Shown in pieces: positions 102 to 35,586 of a stretch of DNA of 40,870 nt. Within the stretch, counting starts at the first letter, position 1. The number at the start of each line of letters is the position of its first letter. This stretch comes from a virus, in the IMG/VR virus record IMGVR_UViG_2651869533_000044, positions 1-40,870 of that record. One strand, given 5' to 3'. The position numbers and the translations under genes are program-made. The notes beneath the pieces were generated by a model. It was not told where the DNA came from. It worked only from the letters and a program-made list of their open reading frames with translations, and did no database searches.

Positions 102-394
102 GATCCGTGCCAACGAATAGTTACAGATCCTTTGATAGTAGAAATCTCATAAAATGTCCATGTATCAGAATCCCATTCATTGCGTGTGGCACTACTCCTG
201 GATTCGGCTCGTAGAATCGGACTGTCAATCAACCATTCGAGATCTCCGCAAATATCTTCTATTTCGACGGTTTCACAGCAATGTTGCTCATGACACATTT
301 TATATATCTCTGTATCAGATATGTAAAATATCAGCGCCGATTCCTGTCTAATAATCTTTTTGATTGTCTTTCCTTTTAGGATTTCAAATTCCAT
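53..394 (-). CDS. hypothetical protein (113 aa)
   Basis: Intact ORF whose stop overlaps the next ATG (TTATGA). It has a Cys-rich centre (HEQHCCETVE) and a C-terminal WHGSSNGYYSEDV block. No function recognised. Confidence 0.6.
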   Translation of the reverse strand: MEFEILKGKTIKKIIRQESALIFYISDTEIYKMCHEQHCCETVEIEDICGDLEWLIDSPILRAESRSSATRNEWDSDTWTFYEISTIKGSVTIRWHGSSNGYYSEDVDFIRIL

Positions 395-421
395 ATTGAT
401 CTAATCCTTTAAAATATCTAT

Positions 422-492
422 TTGAGGGAGAAGGATTCGAACCTCCGCCGCCGGAGCCAAATTCCGGAGTTCTACCACTGAACTATCCCTCA
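422..492 (-). tRNA. tRNA-Gln (anticodon UUG)
   Basis: Minus-strand cloverleaf. Acceptor UGAGGGA/UCCCUCA, D arm GUUC-AGUGGUA-GAAC, anticodon arm CCGGA-AUUUGGC-UCCGG, 4-nt variable loop, T arm GGAGG-UUCGAAU-CCUUC, discriminator A, no encoded CCA. U1:A72 is typical of bacterial tRNA-Gln. Confidence 0.75.
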
Positions 493-493
493 T

Positions 494-1660
494 CTAATCC
501 TTATATGGGTCATAATTTCGCGCATCTGCCATTGCTACCCCAATAGGTTTCAATGTATGCAATATTTTCACTGTGTCTTTGTGCGCGTCCAGAACTTCTT
601 CAATGCGTTTATACGCTTGCGGAGCTTCGTCCACGTCAGCCCCTCTGAGTTCAACTCCGGCTCTTTCAACCCAAGATCGCATCGCGTCTTTGCTAATAAG
701 TCCATCTGTGAGCTGTCTTCCAGTTTTTCTGTCTCTCTTTCCCTTGGCCTGATTTCTTCCCATACAGCGTCCTGCGCCGTGTATGGTCGATCGTAAGGAT
801 TGGATGGATGACTCGTGCTCGCCTCCCTCGAGTATGACGCTGATATCTCCCATAGATCCTCCAACAAAGCTTTTTTGACCAGGAAAGGCAGGAGTAGATC
901 CTTTTCTGATAACCCAGAGATCTCTACCAAAATGGTGTTCTTTCCAAGCAAAGTTGTGGTGGTTGTGAATCTCTTCGACGATGTTTCCTCTAAGAATTTG
1001 CGCAACTCGTTGACATACCCAATCTCTCCCTGCATAAGCATATCGTCCAGCAAGCTCCATACATTTGAGGTATGTGATCCCAAGCTCAGAGCTTTCATCA
1101 AAAACCACCGGATCTGCATGTACTCCATCTACGCCTCCTCCTTCTCTGACAAAATGAGTAGCGATAGAGTGTCCAAGGCCGCGAGAACCAAAATGCACAC
1201 CCACCCATACTCTGTCCAACTCATCGACGAAAATGTCAACATAGTGATTGCCACCGCCGACAGTACCAAGTTGGTTATAAGCTTTGTCTTTAAGATCTTT
1301 GAGGAGGTCGAGTTCAGCCCATATGCCTTCGTCAAAAATTTCGTGATCCACTTTCTCATTGTTTTGCCTTCCAATTCCAAAGCTAATGTGCTTTTGGATT
1401 TCGTTCATATTCCGATATATTCCTTCACGCACTACAGAAGCATCGCAATCCAATCTAACAGCTTTATTCCCACATGCGATGTCATAGCCCACACCATTGA
1501 CACAAATAGCCTTATCAAGCCCAATAACACTACCAACGGGTAGACTATAGCCAAGGTGCCCATCAGCACACAAAGCGCCACATACCGCATTTGATTTCTC
1601 CATGGCAGATTTCATCTGAGACATTACTTCATCTTCAACAATTCCGAAGGTCTTGATCAT
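494..1660 (-). CDS. rtcB: RtcB RNA 3'-phosphate/5'-OH ligase
   Basis: 388 aa with the RtcB signature blocks GYDIACG, GGGNHYVDIF, HFGSRGLGH, IHNHHNF, IRKGSTPA, GGSMGD and HGAGR. Confidence 0.93.
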   Translation of the reverse strand: MIKTFGIVEDEVMSQMKSAMEKSNAVCGALCADGHLGYSLPVGSVIGLDKAICVNGVGYDIACGNKAVRLDCDASVVREGIYRNMNEIQKHISFGIGRQNNEKVDHEIFDEGIWAELDLLKDLKDKAYNQLGTVGGGNHYVDIFVDELDRVWVGVHFGSRGLGHSIATHFVREGGGVDGVHADPVVFDESSELGITYLKCMELAGRYAYAGRDWVCQRVAQILRGNIVEEIHNHHNFAWKEHHFGRDLWVIRKGSTPAFPGQKSFVGGSMGDISVILEGGEHESSIQSLRSTIHGAGRCMGRNQAKGKRDRKTGRQLTDGLISKDAMRSWVERAGVELRGADVDEAPQAYKRIEEVLDAHKDTVKILHTLKPIGVAMADARNYDPYKD

Positions 1661-2599: not shown

Positions 2600-2848
2600 T
2601 CATTGCAAAGGATTGTCTTTTAGGAAAGATCCAAAATTAGCAACGTCTTCGAAACATTCAGAATCAATATGTTTGATAAGCCCACCCATTAAATAATTAC
2701 AGAACTGCCTATCTTTAGGCTCCATGATTGCGTAACAAGTCCAAAAACAAGAAAGGAATGCTATCATAGCTTCACTCTTATCTCTCTTGTATTCCTTCAC
2801 GAACTTGTCTGTAAAATGCGCAACATCGTCTATCATTTGATAGCTCAT
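2600..2848 (-). CDS. hypothetical protein (82 aa)
   Basis: ORF overlapping the terminase stop by 4 nt (translational coupling). No motif recognised. Confidence 0.55.
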   Translation of the reverse strand: MSYQMIDDVAHFTDKFVKEYKRDKSEAMIAFLSCFWTCYAIMEPKDRQFCNYLMGGLIKHIDSECFEDVANFGSFLKDNPLQ

Positions 2849-4365
2849 TCAAACCTCGGATGATACTTATTGTACATTCTTTCTGCTTCTGCATCAGATA
2901 TCCCACTACTAGCACTATCTATGTGGTCTTTTATCGCTATAGCTGCATATCTAAACGCATCGGCTCCATGGCTGTATTTATTGTGGACAGGTCTGTTTTT
3001 ATACATGTCATGAACCGGATCGTATTCTTTTTTGTAGTTCTCTAGGCACTTAATTAACTTGTCGCATTTCTCGGCATCGATCCATACTCTGGGGAATATC
3101 TCGCGAGCAACGTTGATTCCCTCATCTAGACTGATATTTAATGTCGCAAGCTTTATGAGCGGAACTCCGAGGCCAGCGGCCACGCTTTTGATTGATTCAC
3201 GAGTGGCCATGCTCCTGTTTTCGATATCATGAGGTCCAAAATATCTGTCATATAAATAAGGTTTTGATTTGATAAGTGAGAGATAATGGGCAAAGCCTTC
3301 TCCCGAATTTTCGTAATAGTCGATAACATGAATTTCCTGTCCTATATTCTGCCAAAAAACTATAGCGCATGAATCAAGCATACCTGGGTCAAAAGCTACG
3401 CATACACGAGCTTCTCTATCCCAAGGAACTCGAACATTAGTGCCAATTCTACCTTCAAAACGAGCTTCCCCAATCCACTTAGCATAGAAAGAACCATCTA
3501 CAGAGCTTTCAAACGCTTCCTCTGGCGTAGATGGGTATTCCCGTCTTTGGTCGTCTTTTTGTATCAATAATTTCCTATAATACCAAGACTTTTTTTGTAC
3601 AGAAAGGTTTATGCCCTTCATTCGCAGTGATTCAAAATATTCTTCTATCTCTTTTGGGATTATGGTAGGCTCTGTCTCTTCGTAATCTTTGCAATCATAC
3701 CAAGGAAAAAAATGAAACCTATAATCGAGAGGACTCAATTTTTTACCCATTGTCTTATCAGCTTGGGCTACCTGGCAGATATCGTAAAAAGCTCCTTCCT
3801 TTCCCTCCGCAGTACTTTCGATGAAGATGTATTGTTTATTTGCGACCGTGTTCAAGCTTCCAGTGATGATTTCACGAGCTTTATCAGGATAGTGAGAGCA
3901 GATCTTTCCAAATTCACTTATATGGAGATATTGCAACGTACTACCCCGCATCGAAGTACCTACGCGCAAGCTAGAATTATTATTGAAAACCATTTCCCTG
4001 GCGCTATCCGTGGTAGCCGTGCGAAGGGACTTGATGCAATCTGGCATCTTGTCATACGCGAACTTGATGCGCTTGAAAATATGTTCAGCGTCCTCTCTAG
4101 TGTGTGCTATTATTCCAGCTGCAACATTGGATCTAAAAAGGCAGATATCCAAAAAGTAGAGACAGACAAAAGTAGAGATTCCGAGCTGTCGGGCTTTAAG
4201 TATCACATTAGAGAACCATATATTTTCATATAATTGCTTTTGAGCATAATTTAACTTAAACAGAGTTGCCGACCCATCTTTATCCACGATAGTATATAGA
4301 TTTTGTAATCTCCACAAAGGGTCCGGAAGATATTTGTGTAAGTCGGCAAGCTGTTCAGGAGTCAT
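2845..4365 (-). CDS. terL: terminase large subunit
   Basis: 506 aa. N-terminal ATPase blocks (ILKARQLGISTF, LQYLHISEF) and C-terminal nuclease blocks (VCVAFDPGMLDSCAIVF, SHGADAFRY). The size is typical. Confidence 0.85.
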   Translation of the reverse strand: MTPEQLADLHKYLPDPLWRLQNLYTIVDKDGSATLFKLNYAQKQLYENIWFSNVILKARQLGISTFVCLYFLDICLFRSNVAAGIIAHTREDAEHIFKRIKFAYDKMPDCIKSLRTATTDSAREMVFNNNSSLRVGTSMRGSTLQYLHISEFGKICSHYPDKAREIITGSLNTVANKQYIFIESTAEGKEGAFYDICQVAQADKTMGKKLSPLDYRFHFFPWYDCKDYEETEPTIIPKEIEEYFESLRMKGINLSVQKKSWYYRKLLIQKDDQRREYPSTPEEAFESSVDGSFYAKWIGEARFEGRIGTNVRVPWDREARVCVAFDPGMLDSCAIVFWQNIGQEIHVIDYYENSGEGFAHYLSLIKSKPYLYDRYFGPHDIENRSMATRESIKSVAAGLGVPLIKLATLNISLDEGINVAREIFPRVWIDAEKCDKLIKCLENYKKEYDPVHDMYKNRPVHNKYSHGADAFRYAAIAIKDHIDSASSGISDAEAERMYNKYHPRFE

Positions 4366-4775
4366 TATTCTTCGTCTTCTTCACAACCGGCACAGTCAGA
4401 TTGGTTTTCCGACTGTTTTTTAATCCAAACCTCCACTTTCCCATCATTAATACATCGATAAAGAGAATATCCTAATTTTTCATATTCCAATCTATAATTC
4501 TCTAAATCTTGCAAAAAAAACGAATCAGTGGAAATCAATTTGTAATCCTCTCTTTTACAAACAACTTCAAAAATTTCATTTTTATTTTTAATATGAATAA
4601 TTTGTCTTTTAAGAATTTCTATATCTCTTTTTAATTCATCGATTGTTTCCATAAGACATTTAATTTGTTTTGATTTAAAACACTCATTCATTCTTTGCCA
4701 CCATGTTAATTGGTTTAATTTAAAGTTCATAATCCATTCATCATTTATAATCATATACTTGCCATATAAATTCAT
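4365..4775 (-). CDS. hypothetical coiled-coil protein (136 aa)
   Basis: ORF directly upstream of terL with a TAATG overlap. Central heptad-like stretch (ETIDELKRDIEILKRQIIHIK) and an acidic Cys-containing tail. Confidence 0.55.
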   Translation of the reverse strand: MNLYGKYMIINDEWIMNFKLNQLTWWQRMNECFKSKQIKCLMETIDELKRDIEILKRQIIHIKNKNEIFEVVCKREDYKLISTDSFFLQDLENYRLEYEKLGYSLYRCINDGKVEVWIKKQSENQSDCAGCEEDEE

Positions 4776-4835: not shown

Positions 4836-5492
4836 TCAAATTTCCACTCTTATAGCACCGTTTACTGGATCATAATTCTCATCCATGCGGGATGCATTAA
4901 CAAATATTGTCTGCAAACCTAAAATATCCGTTTGTTTTCCGAAAGATTCGTGAATATGACCAAATACATGTAACTTTGGATTTATCTTGATAACCGTATC
5001 TTTAAGCGATTTGCTTCCTACTGAAGAATTAGCACTTCGTCTATTGCAAACCTTGTCTAGTATTCCAAAAGGAGGGGAGTGAGTTACTAAAATATCGATA
5101 TCTTTAGGAATTAAAGACCATTTTTCAGACAACTCTTCATCTGTATCAACGGTGAAAGCTTTACAATTTGAGTTCATACCCTTGAAAGTTTTAGTCCAAG
5201 GAGAGCCCCATATCTTTAGATGTTGAAATTCGGTTCCTGAGTCGCACAGATATTCAAAAGAACCAGAAACCTTGCCTATAGGTCCTTGGTAATTCTCTTT
5301 ATTGGCTTTGTTGTCGTGATTTCCGGCGATTACTATCTTTTTCTTATATTTTTGTTCATCAACCCACTCGAAGAAGTCAAAGCATTCAGAAAGAGTGTCT
5401 GATAAAGTCCAATCTCCAGCTACGATAAGAAGATCACCTGAAGGAAGTTTCGGATGATCTCCATGCATATCTGATATGCATGTGATTTTCAT
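4836..5492 (-). CDS. calcineurin-like metallophosphoesterase
   Basis: 218 aa with all five metallophosphatase blocks: ISDMHG, VAGDWT, GNHD, THSPP, GHIHE. Confidence 0.88.
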   Translation of the reverse strand: MKITCISDMHGDHPKLPSGDLLIVAGDWTLSDTLSECFDFFEWVDEQKYKKKIVIAGNHDNKANKENYQGPIGKVSGSFEYLCDSGTEFQHLKIWGSPWTKTFKGMNSNCKAFTVDTDEELSEKWSLIPKDIDILVTHSPPFGILDKVCNRRSANSSVGSKSLKDTVIKINPKLHVFGHIHESFGKQTDILGLQTIFVNASRMDENYDPVNGAIRVEI

Positions 5493-6460
5493 AATTCATA
5501 GTCCAGGTTGATGGATTTAAAGCTAATCATCTTGCCGTTGATGTGCTCCCAAGATCTGATAACCACACCTTCACGGATATGTCCATTGGCATAATTGCCG
5601 GTAGCGAGCGAACCAATGTCGGTTTCGTCGAAATTATCCCTTACTGTTAGAATCCGTACGGTTGGAAATCCAATCTTCTCACAAAAGTCTATGAAATCGT
5701 ACCCGTCCAGATAGCTCCTCTCTTCGATATTGTAGGCGCTGAACGCTAACCCATCTATCTCAGAAAACCCCATTGGATTCTTTTGAATCTTGGGACCACA
5801 AGTCTCCCACTGAAGGGCGTATCCTTCCGGGAGAATCTCTCTGAGATTATACTTGTTGGCAACCTTCCAATAGCCATTATCACCCTCTTCCAACTCTAGA
5901 TTTCTACTGCACACACCAAACTCGCCTTTCCACTTATAAGCCGTTGTAGAAGATCCGTCGGCCTTCTCTGTGACGTAGTATCGATGTGCCCATAAAGACG
6001 CTATATCTTCTTCACAGCGCTGCCAGTTAGGCTCGTCTGTCTTTGGTATAAATGAGGGGAAGTTTCCTTTGCATTTCCCCTCTAAAGAGGCGGGAACCGG
6101 CTTAACATATTTGATAACTCCCATAACTTCGGTGAGGTCATCTCCAATCTCATCATCTGATGCAACCCAAGGTGTGATTACGCACTCAGAAGGAGCGCCT
6201 TTGAAACGACGCATCTTAACGCGCCAATTAGAGCTTCTTAGAAATTGTACAAGAGAAGATTCGGGAACTATTGCGTCCTGAAGATAGACAAGGCAGGTGT
6301 GACCTACTTCGAAGTCTTCTTTCCGAACGACTCCGCGCCACTTACCGCCTTTTCCGCACACAACAGTAGCAGAAACAATGAAATCAGCTCCTGGAATAGC
6401 TTCCATTGAGATAATCTTACCGACGAAGACAAGATTTTTATTATTCTGTTGAGTGTCCAT
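5489..6460 (-). CDS. ATP-dependent RNA ligase, DraRnl (DRB0094)-like
   Basis: 323 aa. An N-terminal OB-like segment is followed by nucleotidyltransferase motif I TEKADGSS (KxDG), motif IV EGVVIR and motif V ISFKSIN. There is a 4-nt overlap with the phosphoesterase gene. Confidence 0.75.
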   Translation of the reverse strand: MDTQQNNKNLVFVGKIISMEAIPGADFIVSATVVCGKGGKWRGVVRKEDFEVGHTCLVYLQDAIVPESSLVQFLRSSNWRVKMRRFKGAPSECVITPWVASDDEIGDDLTEVMGVIKYVKPVPASLEGKCKGNFPSFIPKTDEPNWQRCEEDIASLWAHRYYVTEKADGSSTTAYKWKGEFGVCSRNLELEEGDNGYWKVANKYNLREILPEGYALQWETCGPKIQKNPMGFSEIDGLAFSAYNIEERSYLDGYDFIDFCEKIGFPTVRILTVRDNFDETDIGSLATGNYANGHIREGVVIRSWEHINGKMISFKSINLDYEL

Positions 6461-34441: not shown

Positions 34442-34762
34442 CTGTTACTTTATTGACCCTATGTGATAAGGGCGGAGGGTCTTGTTATTCCCCTCTCTGG
34501 ATATTTCTACCCAGTGCGGACTATCGCATCTGCTTTCGCAGTCCAATTGTTTAGTCTCTCACGGTGAACATTAATCACATTCTTTTGTGCCATATCGGTA
34601 TCAACAAAAATGCAAGGCATATGAGCGAACGTTTTGAAGTCTTCCGCTCTCTTAATACTCATAAACCTTTAAATATCCTTCCGCCTTGTCTTCCGTCTGC
34701 GTTAAGCAGCGAGGAGTTCCAAGTCAATTAAATCGGATTTATTTATGTCACCACTACCGTTA
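34442..34762 (-). ncRNA. group I self-splicing intron 2 (321 nt, no ORF)
   Basis: P1 pairs exon GUCACCAU with IGS GUGGUGAC (34754-34747), giving U.G at the splice site. The core has GUUCACCGUGAGAGACUAAAC (P7 5' strand), CUGC-GAAA-GCAG (P8) and AGAUGCGAUAGUCC (P7 3' strand). The intron ends ..AAAGUAACAG, with the terminal G at 34442. Confidence 0.8.
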
Positions 34763-34876
34763 ATGGTGACAAACGAACCATACCATTGAATTTGCGCTTT
34801 AAAGTCGGTGACTGAAAGCTGATCCCCTGGAGGAGTTTGCCCATCTGTAAGTGGAACTGTCGCTGCTGTTCGAGCG
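34763..34876 (-). CDS. major capsid protein, exon 2 of 3 (114 nt)
   Basis: Encodes (L)ARTAATVPLTDGQTPPGDQLSVTDFKAQIQWYGSFVT(M), the conserved L-T-(D/E)-G-x-T-P...YG block of this capsid family. Phase 1+37 codons+2 fits both junctions. Confidence 0.78.
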
Positions 34877-35586
34877 CTGTTACTTTTTTGACCTTGTTCC
34901 TTAAGGCGGGGAAGCTCTTCGGCATTCCCTCTCATTGTTACCAATGAGTCCAGACTATCGCATCTCCCAATGCTGGGAGTCCCTGAATTTAGTCGTTCAC
35001 GGTAGATTTTAATATTATCAGTATGGCATACTACCAAAGTATGGAATACCATATACATCAACTTAGCTATCTCGCTGGCATTATGGATGGCGAGGGAACT
35101 ATTTCCATGAATGATAAGAGAATCATGAAGAGAAAATCTCAAGGCATCAGAAAGACTAATAAAGTCTATAGAGCAAGAGTTAACTTCTCCACTAATGTTA
35201 CCGTATGCAACACCGATCAAAGATTGATCGATTGGCTCATTGCTAATTTTGGAGGAGCTGCTAGCTATTCCAAAAGACAACATGAACATTGGAAGCAAAA
35301 GATAACATGGATTATGCCGAGAAAGAGTATTGCTAAAATTCTTACTGACATTCTTCCATTTCTTGTCTTGAAAAAAGAACAAGCTAAATTGATGATTGAG
35401 GCGAGAAAAAGCTTCGATGACAACCAAAAACAACTTTTGACTTCTGATGAAGTCTACAATCGCCGTCTTGAGATTTGTAATCTTATTCGCCTTCATAATA
35501 AAAAAATCCTTCCGCCTTGTTGTCCTTAAGCTGCCTCAAGGGGTTCCAAGTCAATTATCGAGGATTTATCCACGCCAACATTTTCT
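34877..35586 (-). ncRNA. group I self-splicing intron 1 (710 nt) carrying an opposite-strand LAGLIDADG gene
   Basis: P1 pairs exon CACGCU with IGS GGCGUG (35576-35571). The core has ACCGUGAACGACUAAAU, P8 CUCCCA-GCAU-UGGGAG, AGAUGCGAUAGUC and P9 CUCAUUG-GUAA-CAAUGAG. It ends ..AAAGUAACAG, with the terminal G at 34877. The 5' and 3' blocks are homologous to intron 2. Confidence 0.8.
35023..35529 (+). CDS. LAGLIDADG homing endonuclease (single-motif, I-CreI-size), antisense to its host intron
   Basis: 168 aa. LSYLAGIMDGEGTISM is a clear LAGLIDADG motif, and the downstream KILTDILPFLVLKKEQAKLMIE block is typical. It lies wholly inside intron 1 but on the plus strand. Confidence 0.8.
   Translation: MAYYQSMEYHIHQLSYLAGIMDGEGTISMNDKRIMKRKSQGIRKTNKVYRARVNFSTNVTVCNTDQRLIDWLIANFGGAASYSKRQHEHWKQKITWIMPRKSIAKILTDILPFLVLKKEQAKLMIEARKSFDDNQKQLLTSDEVYNRRLEICNLIRLHNKKILPPCCP

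Follow-up and report, generated by a model that had tools for sequence, protein, structure and literature searches.

An intron-borne homing endonuclease gene (HEG) has to be expressed in a way that disrupts neither the folding of its ribozyme nor the expression of its host gene. Phage T4 solves this problem by delayed, structure-gated translation of a sense open reading frame (ORF). How can it be solved when the endonuclease gene points the other way? The question is raised by a stretch of viral DNA of 40,870 nucleotides (nt), positions 1–40,870 of the IMG/VR record IMGVR_UViG_2651869533_000044 (hereafter the window), in which a plus-strand ORF at 35023–35529 lies among minus-strand fragments of the major capsid protein gene. 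On comparative sequence evidence, we consider it probable, at roughly 85%, that this ORF is a working HEG that occupies, in reverse orientation, the P6a loop of a self-splicing group I intron in the capsid gene.

The ORF encodes 168 amino acids (aa) and carries the LAGLIDADG motif noted in an initial annotation of the DNA, here YLAGIMDGEG (residues 16–25, including E24), as well as the conserved sequence LPFLVLKKEQAKL. Pfam PF00961 (LAGLIDADG_1) matches the window protein with E=0.0016, and two relatives exceed the gathering score of that model (L044 with 30.6 and L068 with 23.6; related loci bear L numbers throughout). A phmmer search of the PDB with the window protein matched I-CreI and I-MsoI weakly, and a family profile built from 12 relatives matched I-MsoI (3e-13), I-CvuI (9e-11) and I-CreI (2e-9) over about 130 residues. 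A HMMER scan of 1.84 billion representatives returned 5317 relatives at E≤1e-3, with single- and double-domain proteins among them. The motif residues A18, G19, D22, G23 and G25 are invariant in the 12 relatives, E24 is nearly so, and outside the motif L114 and K117 (in the LPxL..KK..A helix) and R148 are likewise invariant. Judged by this homology, the ORF is a gene for a single-motif, homodimer-type LAGLIDADG endonuclease of the I-CreI/I-MsoI branch, and endonuclease activity is predicted for its product.

The pattern of substitutions points to the same strand. Two IMG/VR phages, L011 and L026, have this intron inserted at the corresponding site, and their HEGs, likewise antisense, are 76% and 79% identical to that of the window. 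Among these three, the ratio of nonsynonymous to synonymous substitution rates (dN/dS) in the HEG frame is 0.10–0.17 at dS values of 1.4–1.7, and over half of the differences (75–77 of about 130) fall on HEG third codon positions. The frame on the capsid strand that is codon-aligned with the HEG has a dN/dS of approximately 1.0, and a second antisense pair, L008 and L020, displays the same selection pattern. A chance ORF is excluded because the frame spans 168 codons, has homologues throughout the family and evolves with a dN/dS of 0.1. Homology and dN/dS thus place a LAGLIDADG gene on the plus strand, antisense to its host intron and to the capsid transcription unit, as initially proposed.

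The minus-strand ORFs around the HEG are fragments of a single major capsid protein gene that is interrupted twice. A scan of IMG/VR with capsid exon 3 as the query yielded 77 related loci, most of which contain an uninterrupted capsid gene of 315 aa that is 97% identical at the protein level. These intron-less alleles, of which L012 is one, set the junctions at YGTL|TAATV for intron 1 and FVTI|TDQVQ for intron 2. On the minus strand, capsid exon 1 (35753–35587, codons 1–56 by comparison with intron-less alleles) is followed by intron 1 (35586–34871, 716 nt, 5′ splice site after U35587 and terminal G34871), exon 2 (34870–34763, 108 nt or 36 codons), intron 2 (34762–34433, 330 nt, without a HEG and with terminal G34433) and exon 3 (34432–33760), which runs to the stop codon. 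Intron 1 is inserted between the Leu56 and Thr57 codons. Removal of both introns gives a capsid protein of 315 aa that aligns without gaps to the intron-less alleles at 97% identity in a DNA-level comparison. The spliced model is also collinear in one piece with uninterrupted capsid proteins of Bacillus phages such as Page and Pascal, among others; a search of GenBank phage DNA gave no match. With these ends, the HEG lies wholly within intron 1 on the opposite strand, as the initial annotation had held. An earlier splice model, with the 5′ site after GGAACYCCU, the 3′ site after AAGUAACAG and an in-frame product of 353 aa, was rejected on the basis of the intron-less alleles. The same applies to the idea that a 42-nt ‘5′ exon repeat’ is co-mobilised exon sequence: the 18 and 20 additional residues are encoded by intron sequence, and the repeat corresponds to P3–P5. 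The exon 1 frame stays open for 19 codons into intron 1 (35586–35529), running through P3–P5 as far as a UAA (35528–35526, minus strand) in the P5 loop. Read on the other strand, this UAA shares bases with the last two positions of the HEG stop codon (35527–35529, plus strand).

Both insertions bear the marks of group I introns. In P1 of intron 1, the exon end CACGCU (35592–35587) pairs with the internal guide GGCGUG (35576–35571) and places a U·G pair at the splice site; P1 of intron 2 (GUCACCAU / GUGGUGAC) likewise has U·G at the cut. The 3′ ends read ...CUCG and ...UCGG, respectively, with a terminal G in both. About 30 homologous insertions at no fewer than 12 sites of the capsid gene family share one architecture, which comprises P1, a short joiner, P3, UAAUUGAC, P4, P5, P6/P6a, J6/7, P7 (GACUA) and P3′, followed by a P8 hairpin (often with a GNRA loop), J8/7 AUGCGA, P7′ (UAGUC), P9 hairpins and a conserved GUAACAG located 3–30 nt before the terminal G. 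P2 appears to be missing from the family. In intron 1, the 5′ strand of P3 lies at 35564–35558 and P4 at 35550–35547/35519–35516, and the 3′ catalytic core (34953–35002, minus strand) consists of P6′ (35002–35000), P7 GACUA (34994–34990), P3′ (34986–34980), the P8 hairpin (34979–34964), J8/7 AUGCGA and P7′ UAGUC (34957–34953). P3 and P7 form the interlocking group I pseudoknot. Covariation was assessed for 30 named pairs of P3–P9 in an alignment of 21 sequences: 99% of the cells are standard-paired and 23 of the 30 pairs show compensatory changes, with none of 500 shuffles performing as well and slid controls reaching 36–47% pairing. P6 illustrates this, as it occurs as CGG/CCG, GCG/CGC, CCG/CGG and GGC/GCC. 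Twelve cells in P3, P4 and P9 are G·U pairs. The polarity of the ribozyme is that of the minus strand, because these pairs would read A·C on the other strand. RNAfold applied to intron 2 alone recovered P1, P3–P6, P8 and P9 (z = −3.8). Capsid insertion 1 is, by these structural features, a group I intron with a canonical core on the capsid (minus) strand, and self-splicing is predicted. The minus-strand assignment of the core in the initial annotation is therefore corroborated by covariation, G·U pairs, the U·G and terminal-G splice sites and the intron-less alleles.

The HEG occupies a terminal loop of this ribozyme. P6 (CGG 35514–35512/CCG 35002–35000) is followed by P6a (GGAUUUU 35509–35503/AAAAUCU 35010–35004), which closes L6a, a terminal loop of 492 nt (35502–35011, minus strand) that is the site of HEG insertion and is almost wholly the reverse complement of the gene. 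The last nine codons (KKILPPCCP, then the stop) cross the P6a, P6, P4′ and P5′ strands (35503–35527), so that the overlap with conserved 5′ intron elements described in the initial annotation is real. The overlap claimed for the first codons is not found: the ATG lies 12 nt inside L6a, away from the 3′ strand of P6a (35010–35004). The intrusion of the HEG end into the core is an instance of ‘core creep’, here on the opposite strand, and the PPCCP tail is conserved in relatives because this end runs through core strands. A comparable observation concerns sense HEGs at capsid site 261 (L038 3013–3648, L045 3362–3886, L053 3297–3884 and L069 2909–3679), which end in ...E(A/V)IV-stop; as these codons, GAxGYGAUAGUC UGA, are J8/7 plus the 3′ strand of P7, the C-termini are dictated by the ribozyme core.

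Across the intron family, HEG orientation was compared among homologous introns, as the initial annotation had recommended, giving 23 antisense loci (13 clusters at 55% identity) and 13 sense loci. On viral contigs, antisense HEGs are present in the window, L011, L026, L008, L020, L068, L044/L046 and L006, and sense HEGs in L038/L040, L045, L053 and L069; a metagenome scan added 15 antisense and nine sense cases. Antisense is the commoner orientation in the capsid intron family and recurs there in many lineages independent of one another. The rarity that had been ascribed to such arrangements is correct in general, but they are not new, as exemplified by LittleE gp14 and I-DirII (see below), and they predominate in this family. 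In this phage group the capsid gene is a hotspot for introns, with up to three introns per gene in varying combinations and most alleles intron-less. In L008–L084, where the capsid gene lies on the plus strand at about 3700–4650 in most loci, introns of this one family are found after nt 167, 261, 277, ~290, 308, ~314, ~400, ~540, 644, 665, 683 and ~750 of the coding sequence. In an unrelated phage contig, the scaffold and capsid genes flank a free-standing HEG homologue of 213 aa in sense orientation (L007 2854–3495).

How such a gene could be transcribed is suggested by its relatives. Within a late block of about 25 kb that is read from the minus strand, the window HEG is the sole plus-strand gene with homologues, and for this reason it needs a start of its own. 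Between P6′ and the ATG, many antisense relatives, representing most of the antisense lineages, possess a sigma-70-like promoter made up of a −35-like hexamer (TGTACA, TAGACA or TTTACA), a 17-nt spacer and a −10 element (TATAAT, TATAGT, TATTAT or TATACT), usually followed by a Shine-Dalgarno sequence (AAGGAG, AAAGGA or AAGGAGG). A clear −35/N17/−10 arrangement, mostly with a Shine-Dalgarno sequence, is present in L008 (~3150–3215, minus strand), L020 (~2836–2900, minus strand), L089, L090, L092, L096, L098, L104, L111 and L127, for example TAGACA-N17-TATAAT in L096 and TTTACT-N17-TATAAT in L111. These promoter and Shine-Dalgarno elements are retained among members that have reached saturation at synonymous sites. 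The initial suggestion that the gene would require its own promoter thus finds indirect support in at least ten antisense relatives. The clade formed by the window, L011 and L026 lacks this promoter/leader segment of 60–70 nt. In the window, the only −10-like element is the weak TATTAT (35013–35018, plus strand) located 4 nt before the ATG, which overlaps a TAATAT (35010–35015), and no Shine-Dalgarno sequence precedes the ATG, both as first described; about half of the other genes of the phage have one. In this clade, a leaderless HEG mRNA starting from TAATAT/TATTAT is possible.

A further property of the antisense genes concerns the strand on which the capsid gene is read. In the window, a ‘mirror’ ORF of 264 codons (34702–35496, minus strand), codon-aligned with the HEG, begins with an AUG just after P6a that is preceded 10 nt upstream by GGAAGGA, and runs through the core and in frame into exon 2 before reaching a stop in intron 2. 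Mirror ORFs elsewhere in the family also begin just after P6a and either end at P7′ or enter the next exon in frame. The mirror frame is open across the HEG because the gene has no TTA, CTA or TCA codons. In the genes of the phage, TTA and CTA account for 41% of Leu codons and TCA for 21% of Ser codons (36% and 14% in plus-strand genes), and the values for sense and free-standing HEGs are 41% and 21%; the probability of finding none in the window HEG is P = 3e-5. In a comparison of 73 HEG clusters at 55% identity, with the last ten codons excluded, these three codons are completely absent from 11 of 13 antisense clusters versus 0 of 60 sense or other clusters (Mann-Whitney p = 1.4e-6). Mirror stops are absent from the antisense HEGs of the window, L006, L008, L011, L020, L026, L044, L068, L089, L090, L094, L103, L104, L111, L112, L127, L136, L139, L163 and L164. 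The other two opposite-strand frames hold 6–28 stops, and strand composition or general codon bias was rejected as the cause in view of these stops and of the TTA/CTA shares of plus-strand genes and sense HEGs. As the avoidance is frame-specific while the mirror sequence drifts neutrally, the constraint would act on the passage of ribosomes and not on a product. We hypothesise, at about even odds, that antisense HEGs in the P6a loop are selected against TTA, CTA and TCA, the capsid-strand frame being kept open over the 400–500-nt insert for ribosome transit. Literature searches found no description of such mirror-stop avoidance.

Intron 2, located 108 nt further downstream in the capsid gene, belongs to the same family as intron 1. 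It contains an antisense remnant of 55 aa (34564–34731, plus strand) that matches the HEG C-terminus; its C-terminal 32 residues share 78% identity with the C-terminal end of an antisense HEG of 187 aa that occupies the same site in L044. On this match, intron 2 is a HEG-less derivative of the L044-type intron. A HEG-less intron with a remnant is the expected end of the homing cycle.

Based on these observations, we propose the following hypothetical scenario, in which (i) the HEG would be made from a plus-strand transcript starting inside the intron, with a start that is poorly defined in the window clade and an mRNA that may be leaderless; (ii) the protein would dimerise and, during mixed infection, cut intron-less capsid alleles near the YGTL|TAAT junction; and (iii) the break would be repaired from the intron-bearing genome, resulting in homing. 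The backwards orientation would separate HEG translation from ribozyme folding, and the lack of TTA, CTA and TCA codons would allow ribosomes to cross the insert on the capsid pre-mRNA, which we consider its most likely reason. The capsid pre-mRNA would accordingly be translated through the backwards gene. This passage could protect the long, AU-rich and unstructured insert against premature termination or nucleases, prevent the insert and the ribozyme from misfolding together, or remove complementary HEG mRNA from it.

Several results weigh against this scenario or parts of it. The window protein alone scores 19.7 bits with PF00961, just under the gathering score of 23.1, and its single-sequence AlphaFold model is unusable, with a predicted local distance difference test (pLDDT) value of 39. 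A scan for consensus sigma-70 promoters and terminators gave no more than is expected from shuffled sequence and no element upstream of the HEG, and neither of the two closest relatives, L011 and L026, conserves TATTAT/TAATAT. Three antisense HEGs, L092 and L096 (of the same HEG lineage as L089 and L094, whose mirror frames are open) and L098, have 7–11 mirror stops, and mirror-stop avoidance is not obligatory. With the Rfam group I model RF00028, the window introns go unmatched even when the threshold is relaxed to E≤10, and Rfam 15, including RF00028 and all other families, yields no match at E≤1 to compact relatives (L066, L069, L073 and L078). We read this miss as a sensitivity gap of the model, since the structural hallmarks are all present.

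Among the alternatives, the one that fares best, although we consider it unlikely, is that the HEG is kept mainly for the benefit of the phage, instead of or besides homing, either by cutting the intron-less capsid genes of competing phages in co-infected cells or as a maturase that aids splicing. For phage PhiPA3, interference competition mediated by an intron endonuclease has been reported (PMC11620839), and introns at 12 or more capsid sites in many combinations fit frequent mixed infections. However, no sequence feature separates such a benefit from ordinary homing. A maturase role is unlikely because the protein and the intron RNA are encoded on opposite strands, and because those introns of the family that have no HEG, intron 2 among them, persist in its absence. 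Distinctly less probable is that the HEG is a decaying relic, unexpressed or inactive and heading for loss. The window gene has no recognisable promoter or Shine-Dalgarno sequence, its clade is devoid of the promoter/leader segment found in other antisense lineages, and the neighbouring intron 2 demonstrates that HEG loss happens here. Yet the reading frame and catalytic motif are intact and the family-invariant residues are retained; the low dN/dS in three members whose synonymous sites are near saturation implies long-term selection on the protein.

It is very improbable that the capsid insertion is something other than a self-splicing group I intron, that is, another kind of element tolerated in or removed from the capsid gene. 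The absence of an Rfam match would fit this possibility. Stop codons in the exon frame exclude an intein or an in-frame insert, every group I hallmark that can be examined in sequence is present together with strong covariation, and the capsid intron of mycobacteriophage LittleE, which has similar core motifs, has been shown to splice (PMC3706429). Finally, the proposal that the real gene is the 264-codon capsid-strand ORF (34702–35496) and the plus-strand LAGLIDADG similarity incidental draws on its length, its AUG with GGAAGGA upstream and its freedom from stops in nearly all antisense-HEG introns, but is scarcely credible and was rejected, as this frame has a dN/dS of about 1 and no Pfam match, substitutions concentrate at HEG third positions, and at the profile level the plus-strand protein is homologous to endonucleases of solved structure.

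With the plus-strand gene as a probable backwards HEG, the window is a member of a large environmental phage group in which a single intron family, one that escapes detection by Rfam, has colonised 12 or more sites of the capsid gene; within this family the HEG is most often encoded backwards and has its own promoter. The intron exists in sense, antisense, HEG-less and remnant forms, which make up a comparative series and a natural system for studying the costs and benefits of orientation. The frame-specific avoidance of stops leads to a concrete, testable prediction about the translation of intron RNA; if true, it would be an adaptation by which a selfish gene can persist in reverse orientation within a phage gene that ranks among the most heavily expressed. 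In practical terms, the capsid genes of such phages will be annotated wrongly, as fragments.

Some further observations concern the surroundings of these introns. Downstream of the antisense-HEG intron of L092, at about 300–1200 (minus strand), additional insertions contain two sense ORFs, one of 132 aa and one of 97 aa, which share the C-terminal peptide ...CSEHCGNTVRDK, suggesting further repeated intron-like elements of a different kind. The sole hint at a host is L088 (CAWDQB010000068.1), a 75%-identical capsid gene inside a 242-kb contig of an Acidobacteriaceae metagenome-assembled genome (MAG), possibly a prophage; the remaining genome matches come from short contigs assigned to Aquaspirillum and Chthonomonas MAGs. 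Adjoining the terminase gene, the window also encodes an RNA-repair set composed of a tRNA-Gln(UUG) (422–492, minus strand), an RtcB-type RNA ligase (494–1660, minus strand) and a second RNA ligase (5489–6460, minus strand).

The window HEG resembles I-CreI, I-MsoI and I-CvuI in its single LAGLIDADG motif, its length of about 160–170 aa and the profile-level similarity over some 130 residues. In contrast, those enzymes are encoded in sense orientation in chloroplast rRNA introns, and their identity to the window HEG is low. The td intron of T4 with I-TevI is comparable as a phage group I intron whose HEG is placed in the P6 loop, with the end of its ORF creeping into core helices (PMC3073962, PMC2988022). 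The I-TevI gene has its own expression signals inside the intron, and the entry of ribosomes into the core is a recognised splicing problem. However, I-TevI is a GIY-YIG enzyme encoded in sense, whereas the window HEG is a LAGLIDADG gene in antisense whose core overlap lies on the opposite strand. Antisense HEGs of the His-Cys box family are known from Didymium iridis (I-DirII) and other nuclear rDNA introns (PMC3073962, PMC9548176). I-DirII shares with the window gene the antisense position relative to its host group I intron; it is expressed from a promoter of its own, as the window gene may be. The I-DirII type differs in being eukaryotic, with a Pol II promoter, a spliceosomal intron and poly(A), in its nuclease family and in its untranslated rRNA host gene.

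The closest published counterpart is LittleE (GenBank JF937101), in which splicing of the capsid-gene intron was proven by RT-PCR and N-terminal sequencing and gp14 is an I-CreI-like LAGLIDADG ORF on the bottom strand of that intron (Pope et al. 2013, PMC3706429). Common to both are a capsid intron of group I type with an antisense LAGLIDADG gene, intron-less alleles in relatives, a related HEG-less intron elsewhere, and the core motifs GACUAAA ... AUAGUC with a GUAACA element near the 3′ end. Splicing is experimentally shown in LittleE and predicted in the window. The LittleE genome is GC-rich, its endonuclease is only distantly related to that of the window, its HEG lies 3′ of P7′ in the P9 region instead of in L6a, and its mirror frame contains two stops. 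The arrangement in the window is thus a further example of a known, uncommon layout with one published phage precedent, from which it differs by the insertion of the HEG in L6a instead of P9 and by its stop-free mirror frame.

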